NCBI GenBank assembly: GCA_030390025.1
Contig: CM059427.1
Span: forward strand, 196,664,001 to 196,728,000
Direction of reading: 5' to 3'
Source: Squalus acanthias
Lineage: Eukaryota
Length of the DNA: 64,000 bases
A model generated the notes under the pieces. That model ran no database searches and was not told the origin of the DNA. It was given only the letters and a program-made list of their open reading frames with translations. Positions 231 through 59,917 of the stretch are shown here, one piece after another (position 1 is the first letter of the stretch; every line of letters starts with the position of its first letter). The position numbers and the translations under genes are program-made.

Positions 231-2681
231 CTCATTATTTACAGTGATCTTGTACTGCGCAGAGTTTGGTGTTCGTGGGGTATCTCCATCCCCCAGAATG
301 CCACTCGGGGCGTTATTCTTACGCGTAGACATACTGCACCTGTTGGAAAAGGTGAACTCTCTCTTGGTGGAATGTGAAGTTGAGCAGGTATCGTAGCGGA
401 AACTCTGAGAAAGAGGATCACCCCCAAATACTTCAACATAGTTGGGTGGTATCTGCAGGTTTCTACCGCCTCTTTGAATTCCATGCAGCGAGTTTCTTGC
501 TGTAAAACAGCCACACGTGTCTCGAGAAGAGCTTTTGTGAACCTTAATAGCGAGGATAATCAAAATCACCAGGAAAATGGACGAGATGACCCCTAAAGTT
601 ATGACCACGTAAAAGCTGGTTTCCGAAACGAACCCGGGGTCTTCAGACAAACTGCTCACATCGGAGAGCATTTGTTTATCGGTTCCCGCCACAGACAAGA
701 TGAATGTGGCTGTGGCTGTAAGTGGCGGCGATCCGTTGTCTTTAACACCGATTACCAACCTTTGCTTAGTGGCGTCATTATTCACAATACTGCGGATTGT
801 CCAGATTTCTCCCGTGTCTGGGGAAATAGTGAAGAGGCCAGCGTCAGTAGCTTGGAGAATCTGGTAGGTAAGCCGAGCATTCTGGCCAGTGTCGCCATCA
901 GTGGCAGAGACTTTGGCAACCAGGTAGCCTGGCTCTGCGAACCGGGATAACGTCTCTAACACCGTGGAGCCGAACTCGGGCAATGGGTGCACGATCACGG
1001 GGGCGTTGTCATTCTGATCCAGGATAATTACATCCACTGAAGCGTTGCCAGAAAGTGGTGCGACGCCAGAGTCCCGGGCCTGAACTTGGATCTGAAAGTT
1101 TTTGAGTTGCTCGTAGTCGAAAGTGCTCTGAGAAAATATGACCCCGCTGTGCGAGTTAATAGAGACGTAAGTGGACACGGACTTGCCCTGAATCAAAGTC
1201 TCTAAGATGAAGTAGGACAGGCGAGCGTTCTGACTTAAATCTGGATCGAAAGCAGTCACCGAGAATATGGACGCGCCGACAGCGTTGTTCTCCATCACGT
1301 AAGCTGTATAGAAAGGCTGCGTAAAGTGTGGCGAGTGGTCATTTATGTCTGAAACCTCCACCCGGATGGTTTTGTTGGATGTGAGAGGAGGGATTCCGCC
1401 ATCACTGCATACGATAGCGACGCTGTAGTTTGACACACGCTCGCGATCCAGTGCCTCCCGGGTAACGAGCCTGTAATAGTTATTTGAGGATGAATCTAGT
1501 TTAAAAGGAAGTTCATTTGGGATTTGACAATGCACGTGTCCGTTTCCCCCCGAGTCTTTGTCTGTTGAGCTGATCAGCGCCACCACCGTCCCGGGGAGGG
1601 AGTCTTCGCCGATAGGACTGAATAAAGATGTTAGTGTCACCTCAGGTGCGTTGTCATTCACATCAACGATGTCAACCACCACATGACAATACACAGGAGT
1701 TGCGTAGGGACCCTTGTCCTTTGCTTGTACATTAATCTCAAAAACACTGTTTTCTTCATAGTCCAAATTGTTCTTAATTCTGATTTCACCAGTTTTTGAG
1801 TCCAGCCCAAACAGTTCACGGACTCGATTCGAAGTATGACTGCTAAACGAATACACTACCTGCCCATTGAGACCAACATCCAAATCAGAGGCGTCTACTT
1901 TGATCACCAAGGTTCCTGTGGGTACATTCTCCCGCAAGCTGACCCTATAGACCGACTGGGGGAAAACAGGTGCGTTGTCGTTGGCGTCCTCCACTGCAAT
2001 CACTATTTGGGCAGTGCCAGATCGCTCAGGGATCCCTCCGTCCCTAGCAATTAACACTAACCTGTGGGTGTTTTCCTTTTCTCTGTCCAGAGGTCTTTCC
2101 AAGACCAAGACCGGCAGCTTTCCGTCCCCGCCGCGCGTCTCGACATCCAGGGCGAAATAGCCGTTGGCCAGTAGCTGGTAGCTTTGCACGGAGTTGCTTC
2201 CAACGTCCGGGTCGTGCGCGCACTCCAGAGCAAAGCGCGTTCCCGGGGCAGCCACCTCCGAGATCTCCAGACGGAACTGGCTCTCTGGGAAACTCGGAGC
2301 GTTGTCATTCACATCCAGAATCTCCACCTGACAATGGTACACATTCAAGGGATTTTCGATCACGGCTTCCAAGGACAATGTGCAAGTGAGGCTCGGCCCA
2401 CAGAACCGTTCTCTGTCCATTTTTTCCTTCAAAAACAGAATCCCACTGTCTAAATTTACGTCCATATACTGCTTACTGGGACCAGACACAATCTGAAAGC
2501 CGCGAGCCGAGAGCTCTTTTATATTCAAGCCCAAATCCTCTGCGATATTCCCAACAAAGGCACCCACATTCAATTCTTCAGGAATCGAGTATCGTATCTG
2601 TCCAGAAACTGGTTCCCAGGAAGAGATGATACAATATAAAAGTTGCCATTTCAATAACCAATATATTTTACAATACTCCAT
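231..2681 (-). CDS. Clustered protocadherin variable exon 1 (SP-EC1-6-TM-variable cytoplasmic part; Pcdh gamma/PCDH10-like)
   Basis: ORF with [11 protein letters not shown]1 CX5C (CGPSLTC), repeated DxNDNAP/LDRE/LDYE/AxDxG Ca-binding motifs and a TM helix. First ATG at 2681 (the ORF track starts at GTG). Donor AATGAG|GTGAGG at 231/230; the read-through frame stops at 186. Confidence 0.95.
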
Positions 2682-2899
2682 TTCCAGCACAAAGCATTTC
2701 AAGAGATTGAGCACAACGCGGCGTCGTTGAATAATTCCTGGGAAAAAGAGTCCATTATGTTTCCATTTTAACTAAAACGGTTAGATTGTCTAAAAAAACA
2801 AACGCACTTTTAAAAAATCTGCGTAATTATTTCTGACAAACCTTCTTATTTCTTCTAAAATCGCCAATGGCTGAACGTAGAGAAGCTAATGTAGCGACA

Positions 2900-3110
2900 C
2901 GCAGCTCGACCCAATGTTACCCGGTATCTGGTCGTATATAATGGCGGAAGGGGAGGGTAAGGCAGTAAGGATCTCCAGTCGCATTACAGCTTCTCATTGG
3001 TGAAAAAAGGCTGACTTTCATTCAGCCAATCACTGCACTGAGCATTTCTTAAAGCTGGACTGCGTTCCTAAACCTTTGCGCAACATTTACATTTATTGTT
3101 GTGCAATGTA
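2900..3110 (-). promoter_or_regulatory. Promoter of variable exon 1
   Basis: Block conserved among all paralogs: GGG-rich box, GATCTCCAGTC, ATTGG-N25-CCAAT (2996-3030), CATTTCTTAAAGCT, ACATTTATTGTTGTGCAA. Confidence 0.75.
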
Positions 3111-3910: not shown

Positions 3911-6376
3911 CTCACTATGTACAGAATTCTCAGAATTTGAGAATGATGCTTTTCCTCCGTTTGCAATGCTTTCACTCTTGACTTGATTCTTCCCTGTCGA
4001 CGAACTGCACGTGTTGGGGAACAAGAAGTCTCCCTTTATCGAACGTGACGTTGAACATGTCTCATAGCGGAAACTTTGGGAAAGCGGATCGCCTCCAAAT
4101 ACTTCAACATAGTTGGGAGGGATCTGAAGGTTCCGGCTGGCTTTCTGAATTCCATTCAGCGAATGCCTTGATTCAAAGCAGCAACACGGACCCAAAGCAC
4201 AGTTGCGGCCACCAAAGGCATTTCTGTTTTTATGAACTTTAACAGCTAGAATGATTAAAACCACCAGAAAAATGGACGAGATTATTCCTAAAGATATGAC
4301 TAAGTAAAGGCTTGTATCAGAAGCGAAGTCAGAGTTTTCCGACAAACTGCTTTTGTCGGACAGCATTTCTGCATCGCCCTCTATTACTGACAATGTGATA
4401 GTCATTGTAGCAGAAAGTGCTGGTGCTCCATGGTCATTTACCAGGATGACCAACCTCTGCTTGGTTGCATCTGTCTTTGCAATACCACGGGTTGTCCATA
4501 TTTCGCCCGTGTCCAGTGAAATGGTAAAAAGTCCCGAGTTAGTAGCATGGAGGATCCGGTAGGAGAGGCGAGCATTTTGTCCAGAGTCGGCATCAGTGGC
4601 CGTCACCTTGGCCACCAGATACCCTGGTTCCGCGAATCGCGATACCGTCTCTGTCGTTGTTGACCCATGCTCGATTAATGGATACACAATCACTGGGGCA
4701 TTATCATTCTGGTCAAGGATAATGATGTCCACGGCAACGTTGCTAGCGAGTGGTGGGACTCCAAGGTCATGTGCCTGAACTTGGATCCGAAAGTTTTTTA
4801 ATTGTTCATAGTCAAAAGATCTATAGGAATATATAATGCCATTCTCTGAATTAATATAGATGTAATTGCTTACTGATTCACCCTGAACCCGACTGTCCAG
4901 GATGGCATAGGATAGCCGAGCATTCTCGTCAATGTCCGCATCAACTGCTGTCACTGAGAAAATGGAGGCACCAATATTATTGTTCTCCATCACGTATGCT
5001 GTAAGGACCGGTTGCGGAAATTGTGGTGCGTTGTCATTTCTGTCTGAAACCTCAACCGGGATGGTTTTGTTGGCTGTGAGAGGCGGGGTTCCTCCATCAC
5101 TGCAGGTGACAGTAATGTCATATGTGGAGGCGTGTTCGCGGTCCAGCAGGTCCTGCGTGAGCAATCGTAAGTACTTCTTCGAGGACGAATCCAGCGTGAA
5201 AGGAAGATTATGTCCGATTTGACATTGCAGCTGCCCATTTTCACCGGAATCTCTGTCTGACGCACTGATCAGAGCCACGACAGTCCCAGGCAGCGAGTCT
5301 TCAGGCACTGGGCTAGATAACGAAGTCAGTGTCACCTCAGGCGCATTATCATTTTCATCAATAATGTTCAATAAAACGTGGCAGTACACTGGGTTGGCGT
5401 TAAGCCCCTTGTCCTTTGCTTGTATAATAATCTCAAAAACACTGTTATCCTCATAGTCCAAATTCGCTTTAACTCTTATTTCACCACTTTTGGAATCCAA
5501 ACTAAACAGTTCACGGACTCTCGCAGATGTATGGCTACTGAAAGAGTACGCGATCTCTCCATTCGGACCATCATCCAAATCAGTGGCATTTACCTGCAGT
5601 ACCACGGTCCCTTTGGTCACGTTTTCGGGTAGGTCGATCCTGTAAACCGATTGAGGGAAAACCGGCGCGTTGTCGTTGGCATCTTCCAGTACGATGTTGA
5701 TCTGAGCAGTGCCAGACCTTTCGGGGACCCCGCCGTCTTTGGCCAATAACAGTAATCGGTGGGTCGATTGCTTCTCTCTGTCCAGAGGCTTTTCCAGCAC
5801 TAACACTGGCAACTTCCCATCTCCAATACCCGCCTCAACATTAAGCACGAAGTATTCATTTGCAACCAGCTGGTAGGTTTGCACGGAGTTGGTTCCAACG
5901 TCCGGATCGTGCGCGCACTCGAGGGCGAAGCGGGCTCCCGGCGCAGCAACCTCGGAGATTTCAAGGCGGAACTGGCTCTTTGGAAAACTGGGTGCGTTGT
6001 CATTTATATCCAGAATATCCACTTCGATTTGATAGAGGTTAAGAGGATTTTCAAGCACGGCCTCCAAAGACAAGACGCAAGTGAGGCTCAGCCCACAGAG
6101 CACTTCTCGGTCAATTTTTTCCTTTACAAACAGAATCCCATTGTCGAAATTTACTTCCAAATACTGCTTTTTTGGACCTGACACAAGCCGAAAATTCCGA
6201 CCCGAAAGCTGCTTTACATCTAATCCCAAATCGTCCGCAATGTTCCCAATAAAGGCGCCCAGTTGCAATTCTTCAGGAATCGAATAACGAATCTCTCCTG
6301 AAACTAGTTCCCAGGAGATAAACATGCAATATAGCAGTTCCCATTTTAAAAAACAAAATATGTTATAACATCTCAT
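3911..6376 (-). CDS. Clustered protocadherin variable exon 2
   Basis: Six cadherin repeats plus TM; ATG 6376; donor GAG|GTGAGG at 3911/3910; read-through stop at 3875. Confidence 0.95.
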
Positions 6377-6579
6377 TGCCAGTGTTAAACATTCCAAATG
6401 CTTCAGCGCGGCTCCGTGGCGTTCGGTTTAACCTTAGATTAAAATTATTTACGCCTAATTCCTTCACCAGAAAGGCTGCAGTGTAGAAAAATACCTTTGC
6501 TTTTTAAGAAATCGTCAGAAAAGTCTCCATTTTGCGGCTAAAATCCCCAATAGATGCAACCGCGAAAGCTGCTGCTACC

Positions 6580-7370: not shown

Positions 7371-7411
7371 ATCTTATCTTTGCTAATCTGTAGGCTTATG
7401 ACAAGATAGTA

Positions 7412-8780: not shown

Positions 8781-8789
8781 TTAACGTTA

Positions 8790-9400: not shown

Positions 9401-9403
9401 TTT

Positions 9404-9779
9404 NNNNNNNNNNNNNNNNNNNNNNNNNNNNNNNNNNNNNNNNNNNNNNNNNNNNNNNNNNNNNNNNNNNNNNNNNNNNNNNNNNNNNNNNNNNNNNNNN
9501 NNNNNNNNNNNNNNNNNNNNNNNNNNNNNNNNNNNNNNNNNNNNNNNNNNNNNNNNNNNNNNNNNNNNNNNNNNNNNNNNNNNNNNNNNNNNNNNNNNNN
9601 NNNNNNNNNNNNNNNNNNNNNNNNNNNNNNNNNNNNNNNNNNNNNNNNNNNNNNNNNNNNNNNNNNNNNNNNNNNNNNNNNNNNNNNNNNNNNNNNNNNN
9701 NNNNNNNNNNNNNNNNNNNNNNNNNNNNNNNNNNNNNNNNNNNNNNNNNNNNNNNNNNNNNNNNNNNNNNNNNNNNNNN
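9404..9779. other. Assembly gap (376 N)
   Basis: Run of N. Confidence 1.
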
Positions 9780-10295: not shown

Positions 10296-12746
10296 CTCAC
10301 TAATGTTCCTACAATTGGGAGAATGTGATGCTTGTGGCTTTTTATTCGATGTAGTTGCGTTGCCGACATTCTTGCCGGTAGATGAACGGCACCTGTTGGA
10401 GTACAAGAACTCTCCTTTGGTCGAATCTGAAGTCGAACAGGTCCCATAGCGGAAACTTTGGGAAAGTGGATCGCCCCCAAATACTTCAACGTAGTTCGGA
10501 GGGATCTGAATATTCCTACTGGCTTTCTGAATCCCATTCAGCGAGTTCCTAGCTCGAAAGCAACAGCACATATCCAGGGCACAGGTAGAGCCACCAAAAC
10601 CATTCCTGTTTTTGTGGACTGTAATAGCAAGAACAATTAAAACGACAAGAAAAATGGACGAGATTATCCCTAAAGATATAACTAAGTAAAAGCTTATATC
10701 ATGAGTCAACCCAGGATCTTCAGATAAATTGCTCATATCAGAGAGCATGTCTGTATCGCCCTCCACCACTGACAAGAGGAGTGTCATTGTAGCAGAAAGC
10801 GTCGGTGCCCCATTGTCGTTGACCACGACAACCAACCTCTGCTTATTCGCATCTCTGCCCGCGAAGCCACGGATTGTCCAGATTTCTCCTGTATCAGATG
10901 AGATAGTAAACAGTCCAGGGTCAGTCGACTGGAGAATCTGGTAAGAGAGCCGAGCATTCTGGCCCGAGTCAGCATCGGTTGCCGTTACCTTAGTAACCAG
11001 GTAGCCTGGCTCGGCAAACCTGGATACTGTCTCCAACGCTGTCGAGCCGTACTCGGTGAAAGGATGCACGATCACCGGGGCATGGTCATTCTGATCCAGG
11101 ACAATTACATCCACCGAAACGTTGCTGGTGAGTGGTGGGACTCCAGAGTCCCGGGCCTGGACCTGGATCTGAAAGCTTTTGAGTTGCTCGTAATCAAATG
11201 TTCTCTGAGAAAATATGACGCCATTTTTGGAATTGATGTTGACGTAGGTGGACACCGGCTCGCTCTGAACCTGGCTCTCGAAGATAGAGTAGAATAATCG
11301 GGAGTTCTGGTTTAAATCTGGATCAAGAGCCGTCACTGCGAAAATTGAAGTCCCAATCACGTTGTTCTCCATCACGTAAGCTGTATAGGAAGTCTGCGTA
11401 AAGCGTGGCGCGTTGTCATTTATATCCGAAATTTCCACTGGGATGGTTTTCCTGGATGCGAGAGGAGCAGACCCTGAATCAGTGCAGATGATAGAAATGT
11501 CATACTTTGAGATATTTTCTCGATCCAGCAGCTGCTTAGTGAGCAATCTGTAATAGTTCCTCAATGAAGAATCTAGGCTGAAAGGCAGGTTGTTTGCGAT
11601 TTCACATTCTACCTGCCCATTCTGTCCCGAATCTTTGTCCGATACACTGACCAGAGCAACCACAGTCCCGGGCTGGGCGTCTTCACTGACAGGACTGAAC
11701 AAAGAAGTCAGTGTCAGCTCAGGTGCGTTATCATTGACATCGATAATGTTTACCAGAATGTGACAGTATCCGGGAATTGCATTAGGGCCCTGGTCCATTG
11801 CTTCTATGTTAATCTCAAAAACACTGTCTTGTTCATAGTCCAAATTTCCTTTAACTCTGATTTCACCAGTTTTAGAATCCACACTGAACAACTCACGGAC
11901 TCTAACAGAGGTATGACTGCTGAAAGAATACAATATCTCTCCATTGGGGCCATCATCTAAATCGGTGGCATTTAATTTGATAAGCAAGGTTCCTTTGGGT
12001 GCGTTTTCTAACAGACTAATTCGGTAAACTGAATTTGGGAAGACGGGCACGTTGTCGTTTGCATCCTGCACTCCAATTATTATTTCAGCAGTGCCCGACT
12101 TTGCAGGAATCCCGCCGTCCTTGGCAATTAGACCTAACCTGTGGGTCGCTTGCTTTTCTCTGTCCAAGGGCCGTTCCAGCACTAATACTGGTAACTTTCC
12201 GTCCCCACCGCGCGAATCAATATTTAAAGCGAAATATTCGTTAGCAACCAGCTGGTAGGTTTGCAGGGAGTTGGTTCCAACGTCCGGATCGTGCGCGCAC
12301 TCCAGGGCGAAGCGCGCTCCCGGTGCAGCAACCTCCGAGATTTTAAGGCGAAACTGACTGTTCGGAAAACTGGGAGCATTGTCGTTTACATCGAGAATCT
12401 CTACTTCAATGTGATACACGGTCAAGGGATTTTCGACCACGGCCTCCAAAGACAACATGCATGCGAGGCCCGACCCACAGAGCTCTTCCCTGTCAATTTT
12501 TTCTTTCACAAACAAAATCCCATTGTCCAAATTTACCTCCAAGTACTGCTTCCGGGGACCGGGCACAATCCGAAAATTGCGAGCCGAAAGCTGTTTTGCC
12601 CGTAATCCCAGATCGTCTGCGATATTTCCAACAAAGGCGCCTAGTTGCAGCTCTTCAGGAATCGAATAGCGAATCTGTCCAGAAACCACAACCCAGAAGA
12701 GGAACATACAATACAACAGTTGCCAATGTATTTGATAATATCCCAT
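10296..12746 (-). CDS. Clustered protocadherin variable exon 3
   Basis: Six cadherin repeats plus TM; ATG 12746; donor GAG|GTGAGA at 10296/10295; read-through stop at 10281. Confidence 0.95.
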
Positions 12747-12954
12747 CGCCAGCACAAAGCATTCCAACTGCCTCAGCGCTGTACGGCGCCGTTGATTCAA
12801 TCCTGAAAATTAAGTTCTTTATATACCATTTTCTTGGAGAAGAGGAGCTACGATGCATAAAAACACCCGCACGCTCTGCGCCTCGCTGAGATTATTTCCA
12901 ACAATCCTTCTTATTTCTCTGAAAATTCTCAGCAGTCGCATAGACCTAACATAC

Positions 12955-14773: not shown

Positions 14774-17242
14774 CTCATTGTTTACAGTGTTGTTGTAATT
14801 TACAGAATACATCATTCCTGGATTTTCTTTCCCGGTAGATTCATTCTGGACATAATGCGTGTCTGTAGATGATTTGCAGGTGTTGGGGGTGATAAAGTCT
14901 CTTTTCGTCGACTGCAATGTTGAACATGACTCGTAGCGGAAACTCTGAGAAAGTGGATCACCCCCGAATACCTCAACGTAGTTTGGTGGTATCTGAAGGT
15001 TTCTACTGGCCTTTTGAATTCCATTCAGAGAATTTCTCGTTGCAAAGCAGCAACAGACACCCAGGGAACAGTGCTGTCCTCCCGAACCATTTCTGCTTTT
15101 ATGAATCTTAACAGCCAGGATAATCAAAATTACTAGAAAAATGATAGAAATTATCCCTAAGGCGATGACCAAGGAAAGGCTCATATCAGGATGGAATCCA
15201 GGGTTTTCAGGTAAACCACTAACATTAGAAAACATTTCAGTAGCGCTTCCCACTACAGATAGGATGATAGTCACAGTGGCAGAAAGGGATGGTGTTCCAT
15301 TGTCTCTTACCACAATCACCAATCTTTGCTTAAAGGCATCTTTATTCGCAATACGACGGATAGTCCAAATTTCTCCAGTGTCTTGTGAAATAGTAAAAAG
15401 GTTATGATGGGTAGCCTGAAAAATCTGATAAGAAAGACGAGCATTCTGACTGGCGTCAGCATCAGTGGCCGATACCTTGGCAACCAAGTAGCCTGGTTCT
15501 GCAAGCCTGGATATTGTCTCTGTTGCTGTCGACCCATACTCGGGTAATGGGTGCACGATCACTGGAACATTGTCATTCTGATCAAGGATAACAACATCCA
15601 CTGAAACGTTACTGGCGAGTGTTGGGACTCCAGAGTCCTGGACCTGAACTTGGATCTGAAAGATTTTCAATTGCTCGTAGTCAAAAGATCTCTGAGCAAA
15701 TATGACACCATTCTCCGAGTTTATAGACACGTAAGTGGCAACTGAGGCGCCCTGAACTTGAGTGTCCAGGATAGTATAGTTCAGTCGAGCGTTCTGTCCT
15801 ACATCTGGATCGACGGCTGTCACTGAGAATATAGAAGTCCCAATGAGGTTGTTCTCCATCACGTTTGCCGTGTATAAATGCTGCGTAAACCTTGGTGCGT
15901 TGTCATTTATATCCGAAACCTCTACCCGAATGGTTTTCTTGGATGTGAGAGGAGAGTTTCCTGCATCCCTGCATGTTATAGTAACGTCATACCTGGAGGT
16001 ATGTTCGCGGTCCAGTAGATGCTGAATCAGCAGTCTATAATAGTTCTTCAAAGATGAATCTAGTTTAAAGGGCAGTTTGTTTGAAATTTGACATTGTACC
16101 TGTCCGTTTTGTCCCGAATCTTTGTCTGTTGCACTGAACAGAGCCACTACAGTCCCAAGCGGAGCATCTTCTGACACTGTACTTGACAAAGACCTCAACA
16201 TCACTTCAGGTGCGTTATCATTCACGTCAATAATGTGCACCAGCACATTACAATGCTGGGGCATTGCATCAGAACCCTTGTCCATTGCTTGTATATTAAT
16301 CTCAAAAATATTGCTTTCTTCATAGTCCAAATTCCCTTTCACTCTGATTTCGCCAGTTTTGGAATCTACGCCAAACAGTTCACGGGCTCTAGCGGCAGTA
16401 TGGCTACTGAGCGAGTACATTATCTCCCCATTGGAATCATCGTCCAAGTCGGTGGCGTTTAATGTGATTATCAGGGTTCCTGTGGGTGCAGTTTCCAACA
16501 GGCTGACCCTATAAACCGACTGGGAGAAAACCGGCGCGTTGTCGTTCGCATCCTTTACTACGATTCTAACCTGAACAGTGCCCGATCTTACAGGGACCCC
16601 GCCGTCCTTGGCTATTAGCGTTAACCTGTGGGTGGATTCCTTTTCTCTATCCAAGGATCTCTGCAACACCAACACTGGCAACTTTCTTTCCCCGCTGCCC
16701 ATCTGTACATCGAGAATAAAATGATCGTTCGGGAGGAGCTGGTATGTTTGTACTGAGTTGTTTCCAATGTCCGGATCGTGCGCGGACTCGAGGGGGAAGC
16801 GCGCTCCCGGCGCAGCAAGCTCGGAGATTTCAAGGCGGAACTCGTCCTTTGGAAAACTGGGAGCATTGTCATTTACATCGAGAATCTCCACTTCAACCTG
16901 ATACAGATTGAGGGGATTTTCAAGCACAGCATCCAAGGTTAACACACAAGTCAGGCTCGGCCCGCAAATCTGTTCTCTGTCAATTTTATCCTTGATAAAC
17001 AAAATTCCATTGTCTAAATTTACGTCCACATACTGTTTGCTGGGCCCGGCCACAATCCGCAAACTGCGAGCCGAGAGCTGCTTTACATCTAAACTCAAAG
17101 CGGCGGCGATATTCCCAACAAAGGCGCCCAGTTGCAGTTCTTCAGGAATCGAATAATGAATCCTCCCAGAAACGAGATTCCACGAGGAGAATACACAGAA
17201 CAATAGTTGGCATTTCAGCAACCAATATATTTTAAATCTCAT
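14774..17242 (-). CDS. Clustered protocadherin variable exon 4 (amplified subfamily)
   Basis: 823 codons MRFKIY...NNE; donor GAG|GTGAGG; read-through stop at 14759. Confidence 0.95.
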
Positions 17243-17439
17243 TTCCAGCGTGAAACATCCCAATTGTTTGAGTACGTTTCTGCACCATTAATTATGCTTT
17301 TTACAGTTATTTGGATGTTTTTAACTCGACGTCCTACGATGTACCAAATACCTGCACATTTTGCGAATCGCTCGGCATATTTCATTTAAATCTTCCCATT
17401 TTGTCTACAATTGCCACTGGATTCTTGCACAAATCCTTC

Positions 17440-20342: not shown

Positions 20343-22811
20343 CTCATTGCTCACAGTGCTGTTGTAATTTTCAGAATTCATCATGCCTGGGTTTTCTTTC
20401 CCGGTAGATTCATTCTGGACATAACGTGTGTCTGTAGAAGTCCTGCAGATGTTGGGGTTGATGAAGTCTCTCTTCGTCGACTGCAATGTTGAACATGATT
20501 CGTAGCGGAAACTCTGAGAAAGTGGATCACCCCCGAATACCTCCACATAGTTCGGAGGTAACTGAAGGTTTCTACTGGCCTTTTGAATTCCATTCAGAGA
20601 ATTTCTTGTTTCAAAGCAGCAACAAACACCCAGGGAACAGTGCTGTCCTCCTAAACCATTTCTGCTTTTATGAATCTTAACAGCCAGGATAATCAAAATT
20701 ACTAGAAAAATGATAGATATTATCCCTAAGGCGATGACCAAGGAAAGGCTCATATCAGGATTGAATCCAGGGTCTTCAGGTAAACCACTCACATTAGAAA
20801 ACATTTCAGTAGCGCTTCCCACCACAGATAGGATGATAGTCACAGTGGCAGAAAGGGATGGTGTTCCATTGTCTCTTACCACAATCACCAATCTTTGCTT
20901 CGAGGCATCTTTATTCACAATACGACGGATAGTCCAAATTTCTCCAGTGTCTGGTGAAATAGTAAAAAGGTTATGATGGGTGGCCTGAAAAATCTGATAA
21001 GAAAGACGAGCATTCTGACCGGCGTCAGCATCAGTGGCCGATACCTTGGCAACCAAGTAGCCTGGTTCTGCAAACCTGGATATTGTCTCTGTTGCTGTCG
21101 ACCCAAACTCTGGTAATGGGTGCACGATCACTGGAACATTGTCATTCTGATCAAGGATAACAACATCCACTGAAACGTTACTGGCGAGTGTTGGGACTCC
21201 AGAGTCCTGGACCTGAACTTGGATCTGAAAGTTTTTCAATTGCTCGTAGTCAAAAGATCTCTGAGCAAATATGACACCATTCTCCGAGTTTATAGCGACA
21301 TAACTGGCTGCTGAGGCGCCCTGAACTTGAGTGTCCAGGATAGAGTAGTTCAGTCGAGCGTTCTGTCCTACATCTGGATCAATGGCTGTCACTGTGAATA
21401 TGGAAGTCCCAATAATGTTGTTCTCCATCACGTTTGCCGTGTATAAATGCTGCGTAAACCTTGGTGCGTTGTCATTTATATCGGAAACCTCTACCCGAAT
21501 GGTTTTCTTGGATGTGAGAGGAGGGTTTCCTGCATCCCGGCATGTTATAATAACTTCATACCTGGAGGTATGTTCGCGGTCCAGTAGATGCTGAATCAGC
21601 AGTCTATAATAGTTCTTCAAAGATGAATCTAATTTAAAGGGCAGTTTATTTGAGATTTGACATTGTACCTGCCCGTTTTGTCCCGAATCTTTGTCTACTG
21701 CACTGAACAGAGCCACTACAGTCCCACTTGCAGCATCTTCTGAAACTGTACTTGACAAAGACGTTAACGTCACCTCAGGTGCGTTATCATTCACGTCAAT
21801 AATGTTCACCAACACATCACAGTGCCCAGACATTGGGTTTAAACCCTTGTCAATTGCTTGTATGTTAATCTCAAAAATATTGCTGTCTTCATAGTTCAAA
21901 TTCCCTTTCACTCTGATTTCTCCAGTTATAGAATCTACACCAACTAGTTCACGGGCTGTAGCAGAACTATAGCTACTGAGCGAGTACATTATCTCCCCAT
22001 TGGGACCATCGTCCAAGTCAGTGGCGTTTACCGTGATTATCAGGGTTCCTGTGGGTGCACGTTCCAACAGGCTGACCCTATAAACCAACTGAGGGAAAAC
22101 AGGCGCGTTGTCGTTTTCATCCTTTACTATGATTGTAACCTGAACAGTGCCCGATCTTACAGGAACCCCGCCGTCCTTGGCTATTAGCACTAACCTGTGG
22201 GTGGATTCAGTTTCTCTATCCAAGGACCTCTGCAACACCAACACTGGCAACTTTCCTTTCCCACTGCGGATTTGTACATCGAGAATAAAATAATCGTTCG
22301 GGAGGAGTTGGTAGGTTTGTACTGAGTTGGTTCCAATGTCCGGATCGTGCGCGGACTCGAGGGGGAAGCGCGCTCCCGGCGCAGCAAGCTCGGAGATTTC
22401 AAGGCGGAGCTCGTCCTTTGGAAAACTGGGAGCATTGTCATTTACATCGAGAATCTCCACTTCAACCTGGTACAGATTGAGGGGATTTTCAAGCACAACA
22501 TCCAAGGTTAACACACAAGTGAGGCTCGGCCCGCAAATCTGTTCTCTGTCAATTTTATCCTTGACAAAAAAAATTCCATTGTCTAAATTTACGTCCACAT
22601 ACTGTTCGCTGGGCCCGGCCACAATCCGCAAACTGCGAGCCGAGAGCTGCTTTACATCTAAACCCAAATCGGCGGCGATATTCCCAACAAAGGCGCCCAG
22701 TTGCAGTTCTTCAGGAATCGAATAATGAATCCTCCCAGAAACGAGATCCCACGAGGAGAATACACAGAACAATAGTTGGCATTTCAGCAACCAATATATT
22801 TTAAATCTCAT
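20343..22811 (-). CDS. Clustered protocadherin variable exon 5
   Basis: Intact 823-codon paralog of exon 4; donor GAG|GTGAGG. Confidence 0.95.
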
Positions 22812-23009
22812 TTCCAGCGTGAAACATCCCAATTTTTTCAGTACGTTTCTGCACCATTAATTATGCTTTTTACAGTTATTTGGATGTTTGTTTAACTCGA
22901 CGTACTAGGATGTACCAAATACCTGCACATTTTGCGAATCGCTCGGCATATTTCATTTAAATCTTCCCATTTTGTTTCAAATTGCCACTGGATTCTTGCA
23001 CAAACCTTC

Positions 23010-28351: not shown

Positions 28352-28551
28352 TTCCAGCGTGAAACATTCCAATTTGCTCAGTACGAGACCGCACCATTCA
28401 TGTTCCTTTTAAAAGTTATTTGGATATTTAAAAAAAATAGGTTAGCGACGATGTACCAAATACCTGTATGTTTTGCGAATCGCTCGAATGATTTCATTTA
28501 AATCTGCTCATTTCGCCGAAAATTGCCAGTGTAATCGTCAACAAAACCTAT

Positions 28552-36581: not shown

Positions 36582-36783
36582 TTCCAGCGTAAAACATCCC
36601 AAATTTTTCAGTACGAGACCGCACCATCCATTATCCTTGAGCAGCTCTTTGGATATATATTTTTAAAACTCGAAGAATTACGATGCACCAAATACCTGCA
36701 CGTTTTGTGAATCTCTCGGCTTATTTCATTCAAATCTTTTCATTTTGTCGAAATTTGCCACTGGATTCTTGCACAAATCGTTC

Positions 36784-39702: not shown

Positions 39703-42171
39703 CTCATTGTTTACAGTGTTGCTGTAATTTATAGAATTCATTATTCCTGGATTTCCTTTCCCGGTAGATTCATTCTGGACATAATGCGTGTCTGTAGATG
39801 ACCTGCAGGTGTTGGGGTTGATGAAGTCTCTCTTCGTCGTCTGCAATGTTGAACATGACTCGTAGCGGAAACTCTGGGAAAGTGGATCACCCCCAAATAC
39901 CTCAACGTAGTTCGGTGGTATCTGAAGGTTTCTACTGGCCTTTTGAATTCCATTCAGAGAATTTCTTGTTTCAAAGCAGCAACAAACACCCCGGGAACAA
40001 TGCTGTCCTCCCAAACCATTTCTGCTTTTATGAACCTTAACAGCCAGGATAATCAAAATCACTAGAAAAATTATAGAAATTATCCCTAAGGCGATGACCA
40101 AGGAAAGGCTCATATCAGGATTGAATCCAGGGTCTTCAGGAAAACCACTCACATTAGAAAACATTTCACTATCGCTACCCACCACAGATAAGATTATAGT
40201 CACAGTGGCAGAAAGGGATGGTGTTCCATTGTCCCTTACCACAATCACCAATCTTTGCTTCGAGGCATCTTTATTCACAATACGCCGGATAATCCAAATT
40301 TCTCCAGTGTCTGGTGAAATAGTAAAAAGGTTATGATGGGTAGCCTGAAAAATCTGATAAGAAAGACGAGCATTCTGACCGGCGTCAGCATCAGTGGCCG
40401 ATACCTTGGCAACCAAGTAGCCTGGTTCTGCAAGCCTGGATATTGTCTCTGTTGCTGTCGACCCATACTCGGGTAATGGGTGCACGATCACTGGAACATT
40501 ATCATTCTGATCAAGGATAACAACATCCACTGAAACGTTACTGGCGAGTGTTGGGACTCCAGAATCCTGGACCTGAACTTGGATCTGAAAGTTTTTCAAT
40601 TGCTCGTAGTCGAAAGATCTCTGAGCAAATATGACACCACTCTCTGAGTTTATCGCGACATAACTGGCTGCTGGGGCGCCCTGAACTTGAGACTCCAGGA
40701 TAGAGTAGTTCAGTCGAGCGTTCTGTCCTACATCTGGGTCGACGGCTGTCACTGAGAATATAGAAGTCCCAATAACGTTGTTCTCCATCACGTTTGCCGT
40801 GTATAAATGCTGCGTAAACCTTGGTGCATTGTCATTTATATCGGAAACCTCTACCCGAATGGTTTTCTTGGATGTGAGAGGTGGGTTTCCTGCATCCCGG
40901 CATGTTATAATAACGTCATATCTGGAGGTATGGTCGCGGTCCAGTAGATGCTGAATCAGCAGTCTATAATAGTTCTTCAAAGATGAATCTAGTTTAAAGG
41001 GCAGTTTATCAGAAATTTGACATTGTACCTGCCCGTTTTGTCCCGAATCTTTGTCTGCAGCACTGAACAGAGCCACTACAGTCCCAAGCGGAGCGTCCTC
41101 GGAAACCGTGCTTGACAAAGACGTCAATATCACGTCAGGTGCGTTATCATTCACGTCAATAATGTCCACCAACACATCACAGTGCTCCGGTATTGCGCCA
41201 GTACCCTCGTCCATTGCTTGTATGTTAATCTCAAAGGCATTGCTTTCTTCATAGTCCAAATTCCCTTTCACTCTGATTTCACCAGTGTTAGAATCCAGGT
41301 CAAAATGTTCACGGACTTTAGCGGAAGTATGGCTACTGAGCGAATACATTATCTCCCCATTGGGACCATCGTCCAAGTCAGTGGCATTTAATGTGATTAT
41401 CAGGGTTCCCGTGGGTACACTTTCCAACAGGCTGACCCTATAAACCGACTGGGGGAAAACAGGCGCGTTGTCGTTAATATCCTTTACTATGATTGTAACC
41501 TGAACAGTGCCCGATCTTACAGGGACCCCGCCGTCCTTGGCTATTAGCTTTAGCCTGTGGATGGATTCCGTTTCTCTGTCCAAGGACCTCTGCAACACCA
41601 ACACTGGCAACTTTCTTTCCCCTCTGCCCATCTGTACATCGAGAATAAAATAATCGTTCGGGAGGAGCTGGTAGGTTTGTACTGAGTTGGTTCCAATGTC
41701 CGGATCGTGCGCGGACTCGAGGGGGAAGCGCGCTCCCGGTGCTGCAAGCTCTGAGATTTCAAGGCGGAGCTCGTCCTTTGGAAAACTGGGAGCATTGTCA
41801 TTTACATCGAGAATCTCCACTTCAACCTGGTACAGATTGAGGGGATTTTCCACCACAACATCCAAGGTTAACACACAAGTGAGGCTCGGCCCGCATAGAT
41901 TTTCTCTGTCAATCTTTTCCTTAACAAACAAAAATCCATTGTCTAAATTTACGTCCACATACTGTTTGCTGGGCCCGGCCACAATCCGCAAACTGCGAGC
42001 CGAGAGCTGCTTCACATCTAAACCCAAATCGGCGGCGATATTCCCAACAAAGGCGCCCAGTTGCAGTTCTTCAGGAATCGAATAATGAATCCTCCCCGAA
42101 ACTAGATTCCACGAGGAGAACAGACAGAGCAATAGTTGGCATTTCAGCAAAAAATATATTTTAAATCTCAT
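39703..42171 (-). CDS. Clustered protocadherin variable exon 8
   Basis: Intact 823-codon paralog; donor GAG|GTGAGG. Confidence 0.95.
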
Positions 42172-42373
42172 TTCCAGCGTAAAGCATCCCAAATTTTTCA
42201 GTACGAGACCGCACCATTCATTATCCTTGAGCAGTTCTTCGGATATATATTTTTAAAACTCGAAGTTCTACGATGTACCAAATACCTGCACGTTTTGTGA
42301 ATCGCTCGGCTTATTTCATTTGAATCTTCTCATTTTGTCGAAAATTGCCATTGGATTCTTGCACAAATCGTTC

Positions 42374-45279: not shown

Positions 45280-47748
45280 CTCACTGTTTGCAGTGTTGCT
45301 GTAATTTAGGGAATTCATCATTCCTGGGTTTTCTTTCCCGTTAGATTCATTCCGGACATAAGGCTTCTCTGTAGATGACCTGCAGGTGTTGGGGTTGATG
45401 AAGTCTCTTTTCGTCGACTGCAATGTTGAACATGACTCGTAGCGGAAACTCTGGGAAAGTGGATCACCCCCGAATACCTCAACATAATTCGGTGGTATCT
45501 GAAGGTTTCTACTGGCCTTTTGAATTCCATGCAGAGAATTTCTTGTTTCAAAGCAGCAACAAACACCCAGGGAACAGTGCTGTCCTCCTAAACCACTTCT
45601 GTTTTTACGAACCTTAACAGCCAGGATAATCAAAATCACTAGAAAAATGATAGATATTATCCCTAAGGCGATGACCAAGGAAAGGCTCATATCAGGATTG
45701 AATCCAGGGTCTTCAGGTAAACCACTCACATTGGAAAATATTTCAATATCGCTTCCCACCACAGATAGGATAATAGTCACAGTGGCAGAAAGGGATGGTG
45801 TTCCATTGTCTCTTACCACAATCACCAATCTTTGCTTAGAGGCATCTTTATTCGCAATACGACGGATAGTCCAAATTTCTCCAGTGTCTGGTGAAATAGT
45901 AAAAAGGTTATGATGGGTAGCCTGAAAAATCTGATAAGAAAGACGAGCATTCTGACCGGCGTCAGAATCAGTGGCCGATACCTTGGCAACCAGGTAGCCT
46001 GGTTCTGCAAGCCTGGATATTGTCTCTGTTGCTGTCGACCCATACTCGGGTAATGGGTGCACGATCACTGGAACATTGTCATTCTGATCAAGGATAACAA
46101 CATCCACGGACACGTTACTGGCGAGTGTTGGGACTCCAGAGTCCTGAACCTGAACTTGGATCTGAAAGTTTTTCAATTGCTCGTAGTCAAAAGATCTCTT
46201 AGCAAATATGACGCCACTCTCTGAGTTTATAGCGACGTAACTGGCTACTGAGGCGCCCTGAACTTGAGTGTCCAGGATTGTGTAGTTCAGTCGAGCGTTC
46301 TGTCCTACATCTGGATCAAAGGCTGTCACTGTGAATATGGAAGTCCCAATAACGTTGTTCTCCTTCACGTTTGCCGTGTATAAATGCTGCGTAAACCTTG
46401 GTGCATTGTCATTTATATCGGAAACCTCTACCCGAATGGTTTTCTTGGATGTGAGAGGAGGGTTTCCAGCATCCCGGCATGTTATAGTAACGTCATACCT
46501 GGAGGTATGTTCGCGGTCCAGTAGATGCTGAATCAGCAGTCTATAATAGTTCTTCAAAGATGAATCTAGTTTGAAGGGCAGTTTATCTGAAAGTTGACAT
46601 TGTACCTGCCCGTTTTGTCCCGAATCTCTGTCTGCTGCACTGAACAGAGCCACTACAGTCCCAAGCGGAGCGTCCTCGGAAACTGTACTTGACAAAGACC
46701 TCAACATGACCTCAGGTGCGTTATCATTCACATCAATAATCTCCAGCAACACATCACAGTGCTCCGGTATTGCGCCAGTACCCTTGTCCATTGCTTGTAT
46801 GTTAATCTCAAAGGCATTGCTTTCTTCATAGTCCAAATTCCCTTTCACTCTGATTTCACCAGTTTTAGAATCCACGTCAAATAGTTCACGGACTTTAGCG
46901 GAAGTATGGCTACTGAACGAGTACATTATCTCCCCATTGGGACCATCGTCCAAGTCAGTGGCATTTAATGTGATTATCAGGGTTCCCGTGGGTGCACTTT
47001 CCAACAGGCTGATCCTATAAACCGACTGGTGGTAAACAGGAGCATTGTCATTCACATCCTTTACTATGATTGTAACCTGAACAGTGCCCGATCTTACAGG
47101 GACCCCGCCGTCCTTGGCTATTAGCTTTAGCCTGTGGGTGGATTCTGTTTCTCTATCCAAGGACCTTTGCAACACCAACACTGGCAACTTTCTTTCCCCT
47201 CTGCCCATCTGTACATCGAGAATAAAATAATCGTTCGGGAGGAGCTGGTAGGTTTGTACTGAGTTGGTTCCAATGTCCGGATCGTGCGCGGACTCGAGGG
47301 GGAAGCGCGCTCCCGGTGCTGCAAGCTCTAAGATTTCAAGGCGGAGCTCGTCCTTTGGAAAACTGGGAGCATTGTCATTTACATCGAGAATCTCCACTTC
47401 AACCTGGTACAGATTGAGGGGATTTTCAAGCACAGCATCCAATGTTAACACACAAGTGAGGCTCGGCCCGCATAGATTTTCTCTGTCAATCTTTTCCTTA
47501 ACAAACAAAATTCCATTATCTAAATTTACGTCCACATACTGTTTCCTGGAGCCGGGCACAATCCGGAAACTGCGAGCCGAGAGCTGCTTCACATCTAAAC
47601 CCAAATCGGCGGCGATATTCCCAACAAAGGCGCCCAGTTGCAGTTCTTCAGGAATTGAATAACGAATCTGTCCAGAAACTAGATCCCACGAGGAGAATAC
47701 ACAGAACAATAGTTGGCATTTCAGCAGAAAATATATTTTAAATCTCAT
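45280..47748 (-). CDS. Clustered protocadherin variable exon 9
   Basis: Intact 823-codon paralog; donor GAG|GTGAGG. Confidence 0.95.
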
Positions 47749-47949
47749 TTCCAGCGTAAAACATCCCAATCTTTTCAGTTCGAGACCGCACCATTCATTA
47801 TCCTTGAGCAGTTCTTTGGATATATATTTTTAAAACTCAAAGAATTACGATGCACCAAATACCTGCATGTTTTGTGAATCGCTCGGCTTATTTCATTTAA
47901 ATCTTCTCATTTTGTCGAAAATTGCCACTGGATTCTTACACAAATCGTT

Positions 47950-51724: not shown

Positions 51725-54193
51725 CTCATTGTTTACAGTGTTGCTGTAATTTATAGAATTCATCATTCCTGGATTTCCTTTCCCGATAGATTCATTCTGG
51801 ACATAACGCATGTCTGTAGAAGTCCTGCAGGTGTTGGCGTTGATGAAGTCTCTCTTCGTCGACTGCAATGTTGAACATGACTCGTAGCGGAAACTCTGAG
51901 AAAGTGGATCACCCCCGAATACCTCAACATAGTTCGGTGGTATCTGAAGGTTTCTACTGGCCTTTTGAATTCCATTCAGAGAATTTCTTGTTTCAAAGCA
52001 GCAACAAACACCCAGGGAACGGTGCTGTCCTCCAAAACCATTTCTGCTTTTATGAACCTTAACAGCCAAGATAAGCAAAATCACTAGAAAAATGATAGAT
52101 ATTATTCCTAAGGCGATGACCAAGAAAAGACTCATATCAGGATTGAACCCAGAATTTTCATGAAAAGCACTCACATTAGAAGACATTTCAATATCGCTAC
52201 CCACCACAGATAATACTATAGTCACAGTGGCAGAAAGGGATGGTGTTCCATTGTCTCTTACCACAATCACCAATCTTTGCTTAGAGGCATCTTTATTCGC
52301 AATACGACGAATAGTCCAAATTTCTCCAGTGTCTGGTGAAATAGTATAAAGGTTATGATGGGTAGCCTGAAAAATCTGATAAGAAAGTCGAGCATTCTGA
52401 CCGGCGTCAGCATCAGTGGCCGATACCTTGGCAACCAAGTAGCCTGGTGCTGCAAGCCTGGATATTGTCTCTGTTGCTGTCGACCCATACTCGGGTAATG
52501 GGTGCACAATCACTGGAACATTGTCATTCTGATCAAGGATAACAACATCCACGGTCACGTTACTGGCGAGTGTTGGGTCTCCAGAATCCTGGACCTGAAC
52601 TTGGATCTGAAAGTTTTTCAATTGCTCGTAGTCAAAAGATCTCTGAGCAAATATGACACCATTCCCCGAGTTTATAAACACGTAAGTGGCAACAGAGGCG
52701 CCCTGAACTTGAGACTCCAGGATAGAGTAGTTCAGTCGAGAGTTCTGTCCTACATCTGGATCAAAGGCTGTCACTGAGAATATGGAAGTCCCGATAATAT
52801 TGTTCTCCATCACGTTTGCCGTGTATAAATGCTGCGTAAACCTTGGTGCGTTGTCATTTATATCGGAAACCTCTACCCGAATGGTTTTCTTGGATGTGAG
52901 AGGAGGGTTTCCTGCATCCCGGCATGTTATAATAACGTCATACCTGGAGGTATGTTCGCGGTCCAGTAGATGCTGAACCAGCAGTCTATAATAGTTCTTC
53001 AAAGATGAATCTAGTTTAAAGGGCAGTTTATTTGCTATCTGACATTGTACCTGCCCGTTTAGTCCCGAATCTTTGTCTGCTGCACTGAACAGAGCCACTA
53101 CAGTCCCAAGAGGAGCATCTTCCGAAACGGTACTTGACAAAGACGTCAATACCACCTCAGGTGCGTTATCATTCACATCAATAATGTCCACCAACACATC
53201 ACAGTGCTCCGGTATTGCGCCAGTACCCTTGTCCATTGCTTGTATGTTAATCTCAAAGACACTGCGTTCTTCATAGTCCAAATTCCCTTTCACTCTGATT
53301 TCACCAGTTTTAGAATCTACCTCAAATAGTTCACGGACTTTAGCGGCAGTATGGCTACTGAGCGAGTACATTATCTCCCCATTGGGACCATCGTCCAAGT
53401 CAGTGGCATTTAATGTGATTGTCAGGGTTCCTTTGGGTGCACTTTCCAACAGGCTGATCCGATAAACCGACTGGGGAAAAATAGGCGCGTTGTCGTTAAT
53501 ATCCTTTACTATGATTGTAACCTGAACCGTACCCGATCTTACAGGGACCCCGCCGTCCTTGGCTATTAGCTTTAGCCTGTGGGTGGATTCCGTTTCTCTA
53601 TCCAAGGACCTCTGCAACACCAACACTGGTAACTTTCCTTCCCCACTGCGCATTTGTACATCGAGAAAAAAATAATCGTTCGGGAGGAGCTGGTAGGTTT
53701 GTACTGAGTTGGTTCCAATGTCCGGATCCTGCGCGGACTCGAGGGGGAAGCGCGCTCCCGGCACAGCAAGCTCGGGGATTTCAAGGCGGAGCTCGTCCTT
53801 TGGAAAACTGGGAGCATTGTCATTTACATCGAGAATCTCCACTTCAACCTGGTACAGATTGAGGGGATTTTCCACCACAACATCCAAGGTTAACACACAA
53901 GTGAGGCTCGGCCCACATAGATTTTCTCTGTCAATCTTTTCCTTAACAAACAAAATTCCATTGTCTAAATTTACGTCCACATACTGTTTGCTGGGCCCGG
54001 CCACAATCCGCAAACTGCGAGCCGAGAGCTGCTTCACATCTAAACCCAAATCGGCGGCGATATTCCCAACAAAGGCGCCCAGTTGCAGTTCTTCAGGAAT
54101 CGAATAATGAATCCTCCCAGAAACGAGATTCCACGAGGAGAATACACAGAACAACAGTTGGCATTTCAGCAACCAATATATTTTAAATCTCAT
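51725..54193 (-). CDS. Clustered protocadherin variable exon 10
   Basis: Intact 823-codon paralog; an in-frame TAG 7 codons upstream supports ATG 54193 as the start; donor GAG|GTGAGG. Confidence 0.95.
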
Positions 54194-54394
54194 TTCCAGC
54201 GAAAAACATCCCTAATTTTTCAGTTCGAGACCGCACCATTCATTATCCTTGAGGAGTTATTTGGATATATATTTTAAAAACTCGAAGAACGACGATGTAC
54301 CAAATACCTGCACGTTTTGTGAATCGCTCGGCTTATTTCATTTAAATCTTCTCATTTTGTCGAAAATTGCCACTGGATTCTCGCACAAATCGTT

Positions 54395-54605: not shown

Positions 54606-54714
54606 TTAAATTGTACTACGATTTATTACAGCCTTGTGGATATTTCTGACTGTTGCGAAAAAATTGTCTCTAGAACAGAATTACAATGATTAGATATAAA
54701 GAATTTGCTTAGAA

Positions 54715-57247: not shown

Positions 57248-59716
57248 CTCATTGTTTACAGTGTTGCTGTAATTTATAGAATCCATCATTCCTGGATTTT
57301 CTTTGCTGATAGACTCATTCTGGACAGAATGCGTGTCTGTAGAAGTCCTGCAGATGTTGGGGTTGATGAAGTCTCTCTTCGTCGACTGCAATGTTGAACA
57401 TGATTCGTAGCGGAAACTCTGGGAAAGTGGATCACCCCCGAATACCTCAACATAGTTCGGTGGTATCTGCAGGTTTCTACTGGCCTTTTGAATTCCATTC
57501 AGAGAATTTCTTGTTTCAAAGCAGCAACAAACACCCAGGGAACAGTGCTGTCCTCCTAAACCATTTCTGCTTTTATGAATCTTAACAGCCAGGATAACTA
57601 AAATCACTAGAAAAATGATAGAAATTATCCCTAAGGCGATGACCAAGGAAAGACTCATATCGGGAATGAACCCTGGGTCTTCAGGTAAAGCACTCACATT
57701 AGAAAACATTTCACTATCGCTACCCACCACAGATAGGATGATAGTCACAGTGGCAGAAAGGGATGGTGTTCCATTGTCTCTTACCACAATCACCAATCTT
57801 TGCTTAGAGGCATCTTTATTCTCAATACGACGGATAGTCCAAATTTCTCCAGTGTCTGATGAAATAGTAAAAAGGTTATGATGGGTGGCCTGAAAAATCT
57901 GATAAGAAAGACGAGCATTCTGACCGGCGTCAGCATCAGTGGCCGATACCTTGGCAACTAAGTAGCCTGGTTCTGCAAGCCTGGATATTGTCTCTGTTGC
58001 GGTCGACCCAAACTCCGGTAATGGGTGCACGATCACTGGAACATTGTCATTCTGATCAAGGATAACAACATCCACTGAAACGTTGCTGGCGAGTGTTGGG
58101 ACTCCAGAATCCTGGACCTGAACTTGGATCTGAAAGTTTTTCAGTTGCTCATAGTCAAAAGATCTCTGAGCAAATATGACACCGCTCTCTGAGTTTATAG
58201 CGACATAACTGGATGCCAAGGCGCCCTGAACTTGAGTGTCCAGGATAGAATAGTTCAGTTGAGCGTTCTGTCCTACATCTGGATCAAAGGCTGTCACTGT
58301 GAATATGGAAGTCCCAATAATATTGTTCTCCATCACGTTTGCCGTGTATAAATGCTGCGTAAACCTTGGTGCGTTGTCATTTATATCGAAAACCTCTACC
58401 CGAATGGTTTTCTTGGATGTGAGAGGAGGGTTTCCTGCATCCCGGCATGTTATAATAACGTCATACCTGGAGGTATGTTCGCGGTCCAGTAGATGCTGAA
58501 TCAGCAGTCTATAATAGTTCTTCAAAGATGAATCTAATTTAAAGGGCAGTTTATTTGAGATTTGACATTGTACCTGCCCGTTTAGACCCGAATCTTTGTC
58601 TGCTGCACTGAACAGAGCCACTACAGTCCCAAGCGGAGCATCTTCTGACAGTGTACTTGACAAAGACGTCAATATCACCTCAGGTGCGTTATCATTCACA
58701 TCAATAATGTCCACCAACACATCACAGTGCTCCGGTGTTGCGCCAATACCCTTGTCCATTGCTTGTATGTTAATCTCAAAGGCATTGCTTTCTTCATAGT
58801 CCAAATTCTCTTTCACTCTGATTTCACCAGTTTTAGAATCCACGTCAAACAGTTCACGGGCTCTAGCGGCAGTATGGCTACTGAGCGAGTACATTATCTC
58901 CCCATTGGGACCATCGTCCAAGTCAGTGGCATTTAATGTGATTATCAGGGTTCCTTTGGGTGCACTTTCCAACAGGCTGACCCTATAAACCGACTGGGAG
59001 AAAACAGGCACGTTGTCGTTAATATCCTTTACTATGATTGTAACCTGAACAGTGCCCGATCTTACAGGGACCCCGCCGTCCATGGCCATTAGCTTTAGCC
59101 TGTGGGTGGATTCCGTTTCTCTGTCCAAGGATCCCTGCAACACCAACACTGGCAACTTTCTTTCCCCTCTGCCCATCTGTACATTGAGAATAAAATAATC
59201 GTTCGGGAGGAGCTGGTAGGTTTGTACTGAGTTGGTTCCAATGTCCGGATCGTGCGCGGACTCGAGGGGGAAGCGCGCTCCCGGCGCAGCAAGCTCGGAG
59301 ATTTCAAGGCGGAGCTCGTCCTTTGCAAAACTGGGAGCATTGTCATTTACATCGAGAATCTCCACTTCAACCTGGTACAGATTGAGGGGATTTTCAAGCA
59401 CAACATCCAAGGTTAACACACAAGTCAGGCTCGGCCCGCATAGATTTTCTCTGTCAATCTTTTCCTTAACAAACAAAATTCCATTGTCTAAATTTACGTC
59501 CACATACTGTTTCCTGGAGCCGGGCACAATCCGCAAACTTCGAGCCGAGAGCTGCTTCACATCTAAACCCAAATCGGCGGCGATATTCCCAACAAAGGCG
59601 CCCAGTTGCAGTTCTTCAGGAATCGAATAATGAATATTCCCAGAAACGAGATTCCACGAGGAGAATACACAGAACAATAGTTGGCATTTCAGCAACCAAT
59701 ATATTTTAAATCTCAT
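57248..59716 (-). CDS. Clustered protocadherin variable exon 11
   Basis: Intact 823-codon paralog; donor GAG|GTGAGG. Confidence 0.95.
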
Positions 59717-59917
59717 TTCCAGCGTAAAACATCCCAATCTTTTCAGTTCGAGACCGCACCATTCATTATCCTTGAGGAGTTATTTGGATATATATTTTAA
59801 AAACTCGAAGAACTACGATGTACCAAATACCTGCACGTTTTGTGAATCGCTCGGCTTATTTCATTTAAATTTTCTCATTTTGTCGAAAATTGCCACTGGA
59901 TTCTTGCACAAATCGTT

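Follow-up and report, generated by a model that had tools for sequence, protein, structure and literature searches.

The nu subcluster of the clustered protocadherin (Pcdh) genes of Squalus acanthias carries, 16 nucleotides (nt) ahead of the start codon of most of its variable exons, an out-of-frame ATG that is conserved beyond neutral expectation. The stretch analysed here (the window; 64,000 nt of contig CM059427.1, positions 196,664,001-196,728,000) holds eleven of these exons. Its features lie on the minus strand, and all offsets are counted from the Pcdh ATG. An earlier note on this DNA had described the upstream ATG (uATG) before all eleven exons and had read it as a cluster-wide brake that dampens or equalises isoform dose. 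The ATG was found at -16 in 11/11 window exons, in frame -1 and with an open reading frame (ORF) that crosses the Pcdh ATG, and its coordinates and peptides had all been read correctly. Sequence comparison indicates that this feature is real, constrained and probably ancient, that it is limited to one subcluster, and that it is embedded in a larger element.

A search of the animal's own genome gave 93 matches, 92 of them in one 2-Mb cluster and one on contig C2. The cluster, with at least 92 variable-exon matches, spans about 2.1 Mb (196.58-198.68 Mb). Its 81 exons outside the window were analysed as well, and a tree was built. The -16 ATG was present in 23 of the 26 nu exons that have a start codon (12/15 outside the window). 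It was absent from all three degenerate nu copies, which have lost both ATGs; L010, L011 and L013, having no start codon, were left out of the tree. Only one of the 63 non-nu exons has it, namely the neighbour L019, a distant exon in which the ATG and the bases following it are kept but the 5' half of the element is not. The uATG thus occurs in 24/92 exons, nearly all in the nu subcluster. It is subcluster-specific, and the description of it as cluster-wide has to be given up.

Constraint was measured as parsimony changes on the coding sequence (CDS) tree of the 26 nu exons (tree length 2.97). The -16 triplet changed 3 times, compared with a base-matched neutral mean of 12-14. The base-matched nulls gave P = 0.0001 with four-fold sites, 0.003 with third positions and 0.0003 with leader sites, and a null drawn from three four-fold sites gave a mean of 13.4 changes and P = 0.001. 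Because the triplet had been picked on window exons, the test was rerun on the 15 exons outside the window, where it changed 3 times versus 10 (P = 0.0025). In both sets the uATG is conserved beyond neutral expectation, which bears out this part of the earlier reading. The triplet has the second-lowest number of changes among the 28 triplets of -30..-1, and the bases beside it change freely (5, 4 and 7 changes at -18, -17 and -13). Eleven of these 30 sites show 0-1 changes (-30, -29, -27, -20, -16, -15, -12, -11, -5, -4 and -3). Two of them lie in the ATG, whose G at -14 changed twice, and three belong to the context of the main start; -21 also changed twice. Two other subfamilies have 3 and 2 such slow sites per 30, versus 11 in nu, which shows that a constrained, nu-specific leader element of about 30 nt exists and is centred on the -16 ATG. 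On exon 11 it is placed as follows, with the same offsets in all exons.

59717..59749, minus strand, nu-specific conserved leader element, about -33..-1, defined by slow sites

The ATG could instead be the ATG of one ancestral exon copied by duplication, through neutral inheritance or gene conversion. Such copying fully explains the second ATG, at -46. The earlier note had placed this ATG, with an open 18-codon frame, before exons 4-11, and it was found there in 8/8; in the subcluster it is confined to one young clade (9/26 nu exons), and in each of two related organisms one paralog has GTG instead. We conclude that the -46 ATG was simply inherited within that clade and adds little. Copying also fully explains the 8-fold repeat in exons 4-11, which are 88% identical in -30..-1 and 93% in CDS; the latter figure reduces the window to about four independent lineages, not eleven. 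Shark sequences are slow, too, and the leader is still alignable over 400 nt. Exons 1-3 do keep the uATG, as had been noted, but their leaders align over this length and have not simply diverged; identity among exons 1, 2, 3 and 11 is 64% in -400..-31 and 69% in -30..-1. Against mere copying of the -16 ATG, a neutral site on this tree averages about 4.5 changes, and slow and fast sites are interspersed over 30 nt, a pattern that conversion tracts would not leave; the adjoining signal peptides also remain ortholog-specific across species. Conversion is reportedly low in elephant shark (PMC2764143), and the out-of-sample P of 0.0025 weakens inheritance further. For the -16 ATG this alternative is decidedly unlikely. 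Regarding the -46 ATG, the annotated start of protein P0020 from Scyliorhinus canicula, MVPRQT, resembles the -46 uORF (upstream ORF) peptide, apparently shifted into the Pcdh frame; the -46 ATG would therefore be older than S. canicula.

An ORF scan of the window gave 11 head-to-tail ORFs of 830-860 codons each on the minus strand. Each has a signal peptide, cadherin repeats (domain check on exon 11) and a probable donor, GAG/GTGAG, and they show the single-large-exon architecture of clustered Pcdh variable exons, with signal peptide, cadherin repeats, transmembrane (TM) segment and 5' donor. Their homologs in the search were chondrichthyan clustered protocadherins. Of the delta, epsilon, mu and nu subclusters of elephant shark, all but delta lack orthologs in bony vertebrates (PMC2764143). 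Five named Callorhinchus milii nu proteins (nu8, 9, 13, 15 and 17) match this clade at 71-73% versus 54-56% for other exons, and constant exons of nu type are located 25-80 kb to the 3' side of the window, near 196.639, 196.600 and 196.583 Mb. Because of these best matches and shared constant exons, which liken the locus to the C. milii nu subcluster, we assign the ORFs to Pcdh-nu.

231..2681, minus strand, Pcdh-nu variable exon 1 CDS
3911..6376, minus strand, Pcdh-nu variable exon 2 CDS
10296..12746, minus strand, Pcdh-nu variable exon 3 CDS
14774..17242, minus strand, Pcdh-nu variable exon 4 CDS
20343..22811, minus strand, Pcdh-nu variable exon 5 CDS
25883..28351, minus strand, Pcdh-nu variable exon 6 CDS
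34113..36581, minus strand, Pcdh-nu variable exon 7 CDS
39703..42171, minus strand, Pcdh-nu variable exon 8 CDS
45280..47748, minus strand, Pcdh-nu variable exon 9 CDS
51725..54193, minus strand, Pcdh-nu variable exon 10 CDS
57248..59716, minus strand, Pcdh-nu variable exon 11 CDS

The uORFs that cross the starts of these exons are the following.

2668..2697, minus strand, exon 1 uORF from the -16 ATG, MLCAGNGVL and stop, 9 amino acids (aa), stop ending at +14
6363..6392, minus strand, exon 2 uORF from the -16 ATG, MFNTGNEML and stop, 9 aa
12655..12762, minus strand, exon 3 uORF from the -16 ATG, 35 aa, also open from an ATG at -112 (position 12858)
17232..17288, minus strand, exon 4 uORF, MVQKRTQTIGMFHAGNEI and stop, ATGs at -46 (17288) and -16 (17258), stop ending at +11
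22801..22857, minus strand, exon 5 uORF, ATGs at -46 and -16 (22827)
28341..28397, minus strand, exon 6 uORF, ATGs at -46 and -16 (28367)
36571..36627, minus strand, exon 7 uORF, ATGs at -46 and -16 (36597)
42161..42217, minus strand, exon 8 uORF, ATGs at -46 and -16 (42187)
47738..47794, minus strand, exon 9 uORF, ATGs at -46 and -16 (47764)
54183..54239, minus strand, exon 10 uORF, ATGs at -46 and -16 (54209), Pcdh-frame TAG at -21
59706..59762, minus strand, exon 11 uORF, ATGs at -46 and -16 (59732)

In layout these are overlapping uORFs (oORFs): each begins ahead of the main ATG in another frame and stops beyond it. Among the 23 nu exons with the -16 ATG, the stop ends at +11 or +14 in 19 and at +29, +92 and +104 in three; in the frameshifted L014 the ORF continues in frame into the Pcdh ORF. 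A 1-nt deletion just after the homologous start codon puts the -16 ATG of L014 in the Pcdh frame, and L012 has a 2-nt deletion; related organisms have the undeleted form, so decay or assembly error is likely. One or two frameshifts occur in many variable exons (L004, L007, L008, L014, L019 and many upstream), and L019 also has an in-frame stop; these exons may be pseudogenes or contain long-read indel errors.

The uORF peptide shows no constraint. Its codons 2-3 vary, its length ranges from 8 to 39 aa, and a four-fold site of its frame (-5) is slow; a conserved-peptide uORF was therefore rejected, the peptide being variable in both sequence and length. We also considered that the leader encodes an in-frame N-terminal extension starting from a CTG at -30, or is the relic of a longer signal peptide. 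The Pcdh frame does read as a pattern L..L.CF.L.M, its codon positions 1 and 2 change less (2.8 and 2.9) than position 3 (4.6), and the stingray protein P0065 has an M exactly at the -30 codon. However, Pcdh-frame stops occur in -30..-1 in 6/26 exons, 5 of them full-length, which equals the 7.5-7.9 obtained when the leader was simulated at its observed site rates free of coding constraint; zero stops would there have P of about 0.01. One of these is the TAG of exon 10 at -21, which had been cited earlier against a hidden extension; that argument is borne out. The Pcdh-frame codon that holds the TG is Cys, Trp or stop, so the nucleotide letters matter and not the residue, and the G of the CTG is lost in 5/26. 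The relic version fares no better, since the nu main start and the start of the non-nu exon L079 share one register relative to the LKWQ motif, for which reason the nu start looks ancestral; a relic by itself also cannot account for ongoing constraint. We hold both versions to be very unlikely.

A further candidate for the conserved feature was a hairpin in the leader (-34..-5) whose loop edge carries the ATG. L001, L002, L003, W03 and L006 fold a similar stem-loop of -8 to -12 kcal/mol, but RNAalifold gives no consensus structure, the sole variable pair is kept in 8/16 lineages, and z is below -2 in only 3/26. No Rfam match was found in the window. This reading is extremely doubtful.

The age of the element was judged from other species. 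Three short records from two related organisms are identical over -22..+13. In addition, 13 homologous annotated proteins, from catsharks, sevengill, whale, basking and saw sharks, sawfish, stingray, electric ray and chimaera, read through the leader in the Pcdh frame. Their residue -5 is C in 11/13 and W in 2/13, and residue -6 is always one of E, K, G and Q, never D, N or H; both residues fit xxA/TG. Six of the 13 came from a profile that held the motif and are thus biased, whereas seven came from an extension-free query, and all seven have C. P0127, P0001, P0110 and P0119 were left out of the tally, their extensions being too short. A search with one exon's extension gave 1 protein, and a search with representatives gave 7 hits, two of which were unrelated repeat proteins. 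These sequences suggest that the leader element likely predates the chimaera-elasmobranch split. It is likely that the element arose in one ancestral nu exon and spread by tandem duplication.

The nu exons also differ from other exons farther upstream. The probable promoter of exon 11 is placed by its conserved blocks.

59950..60090, minus strand, probable exon 11 promoter, with the GCTTTAAGAAA block at about -365, reverse and forward CCAAT at about -340 and -310, and a C-rich block at about -275

The GCTTTAAGAAA block is near-invariant (25/26 nu exons). The CGCT box was found in 0/26 nu exons versus 52/60 non-nu exons, and nu keeps a CCAAT at the place that matches the non-nu CGCT box (L020-L077, -215..-375). 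These observations bear on the alternative that -33..-1 is a binding site of nu, either at the DNA level (downstream promoter or transcription factor) or for an RNA-protein interaction, and that the ATG in it is incidental. The density of slow sites specific to nu speaks for a site, and nu promoters without a CGCT box need other inputs. Many copies read TGGAATG, which we take to be a TEAD-like core, but its GGA changes 4-5 times per site and the ATG does not. Antisense, -34..-26 resembles the left half of the neuron-restrictive silencer element (NRSE), with 0-3 mismatches in 25/26 (half-site consensus quoted in PMC2926608). The right half has 6-10 mismatches, however, and two half sites were found neither at the canonical nor at a known extended spacing; NRSE/RE1 was rejected, leaving a left-half likeness. 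Scored with a matrix made from the CGCT element of non-nu exons, -33..-1 does not exceed -1, and the better nu hits fall at the CCAAT near -320; as a candidate the Pcdh conserved sequence element (CSE; CGCT box) was likewise rejected for want of a match to -33..-1. An out-of-frame ATG so near the start is, moreover, normally selected against (PMC7889888). We regard a binding site as possible, though somewhat doubtful. As a separate observation, the antisense CGCT element of L021-L033, L079 and L080 (-300..-400) resembles the NRSE with a 7-9-nt spacer and 2-4 mismatches.

The sequence evidence leads us to postulate, with about even confidence, that the -16 ATG is a leaky-scanning, overlapping-uORF damper of Pcdh-nu translation. 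Ribosomes starting at the -16 AUG would translate 8-9 codons, terminate shortly after the Pcdh start and so be unavailable to the Pcdh ORF. For this the cap should lie upstream of -16, and the conserved CCAAT motifs at about -340 and -310 suggest one near -250 to -200, going by the typical CCAAT-to-cap distance. Among leader ATGs downstream of the promoter blocks, that at -16 is the most conserved (23/26; next-best 10/26). Its context has a purine at -3 in 21/23 and no G at +4, and the main start 16 nt on has a similar or better context; such a middling context would pass a share of ribosomes to the Pcdh start. Since U- and G-rich contexts are weak in zebrafish, where oORFs repress in reporters (PMC11685710), the slow TT at -21/-20 could serve as a leaky context. 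In yeast reporters, main-ORF output is reduced by out-of-frame uAUGs located between -30 and -3, and AUG-AUG competition fades at about 17 nt (PMC9743702). Conservation typically covers the start codons of uORFs and not their peptides, and oORFs are the more depleted class (PMC7889888). A search of sequencing runs gave 15, none recorded as RNA, which says nothing on expression. Contigs from runs of 3 studies that we guessed to be RNA nevertheless connect the uATG with the CDS, which is compatible with an upstream cap, although contigs cannot show starts and the exons also lie within introns of upstream isoforms. Contigs of two such runs end at about -173 and -124, and two others extend past -400; these ends were not used to place the transcription start site. 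A 5'-untranslated mini-intron (GT near -114, AG near -57, about 57 nt) was dropped, no such joint being seen in the contigs.

Several points weigh against a damper. The full-length nu exons L016, L017 and L018 have no -16 ATG, and there the whole element is relaxed and not the ATG alone. The constraint test assumes that the leader shares the CDS tree. The earlier note's expectation that the uATG outlasts its flanking bases held for the adjacent -18, -17 and -13 but not for eight other sites in -30..-1, which are as slow as the ATG; among them, -30, -29 and -27 are too distant from either AUG to be AUG context. The leaders of nu exons hold 1-6 uATGs in -200..-1, some in better context, and the one at -16 may be one of many. 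In the nu exons the absence of stops from the uORF frame does not reach significance (P = 0.35-0.44). Finally, the cross-species evidence is at the protein level, where the A of the -16 ATG is not directly visible. As for the suggestion that the uATG equalises isoform dose, the varying number of uATGs, the varying context of the main ATG and the three full-length exons without the uATG do not support it; a damper would rather lower the ceiling per transcript.

In its parts the proposed damper resembles known systems. Like the oORFs described in PMC7889888 and PMC11685710, it would comprise an upstream out-of-frame AUG, an ORF ending inside the main CDS, and a conserved start with a peptide that is not conserved. 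What sets it apart is its parallel retention in a tandem subcluster of 26 paralogs. Its 16-nt spacing sits at the competition limit of about 17 nt for competing AUG pairs (Li et al. 2022, PMC9743702), a limit measured in yeast and for downstream ATGs. The leader element has a further likeness to the Pcdh CSE (CGCT box, a CTCF site; PMC7811963), which is likewise conserved among the paralogs and keeps a set distance to the start codon. The CSE, however, belongs to the promoter DNA, lies about 215-375 nt upstream in the non-nu exons of this cluster and was not detected in nu.

The mechanism would be ordinary, oORFs being common; the unusual part is that the uATG has been retained across the paralogs, probably for very long, and that their subcluster also lacks the CGCT box. 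Clustered Pcdh diversity is explained by promoter choice. In a literature search of titles and abstract openings, with most subscription papers outside its coverage, no description was found of a uATG or leader element in the C. milii nu subcluster, or of a uORF or translational layer in clustered Pcdh. If the uATG works, a neuron's nu isoforms would be damped after transcription, and the natural losses in L016-L018 would be built-in controls.

Another out-of-frame ATG was seen elsewhere in the cluster. L034, L035 and L036 (197.32-197.37 Mb) form a separate non-nu subfamily with short, 19-codon signal peptides, and 3/3 have an out-of-frame ATG at -25 with an overlap to +77 or +116. This ATG may be a former start shifted out of frame. 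A bolder view would be that nu lost the CGCT/CTCF box and carries a tuned, pre-chimaera brake on nearly every isoform, that L034-L036 gained their own -25 ATG, and that Pcdh dose in cartilaginous fish was repeatedly set at translation; we consider it unlikely.

The remainder of the window contains a run of 376 N at 9404-9779, between exons 2 and 3 and away from every uATG. Minus-strand ORF fragments at 60427-60906 and 30449-31241 resemble retroelement remnants and have no Pfam match; to us they look CR1-like and GIY-YIG-like. A high-copy repeat begins near 60250.

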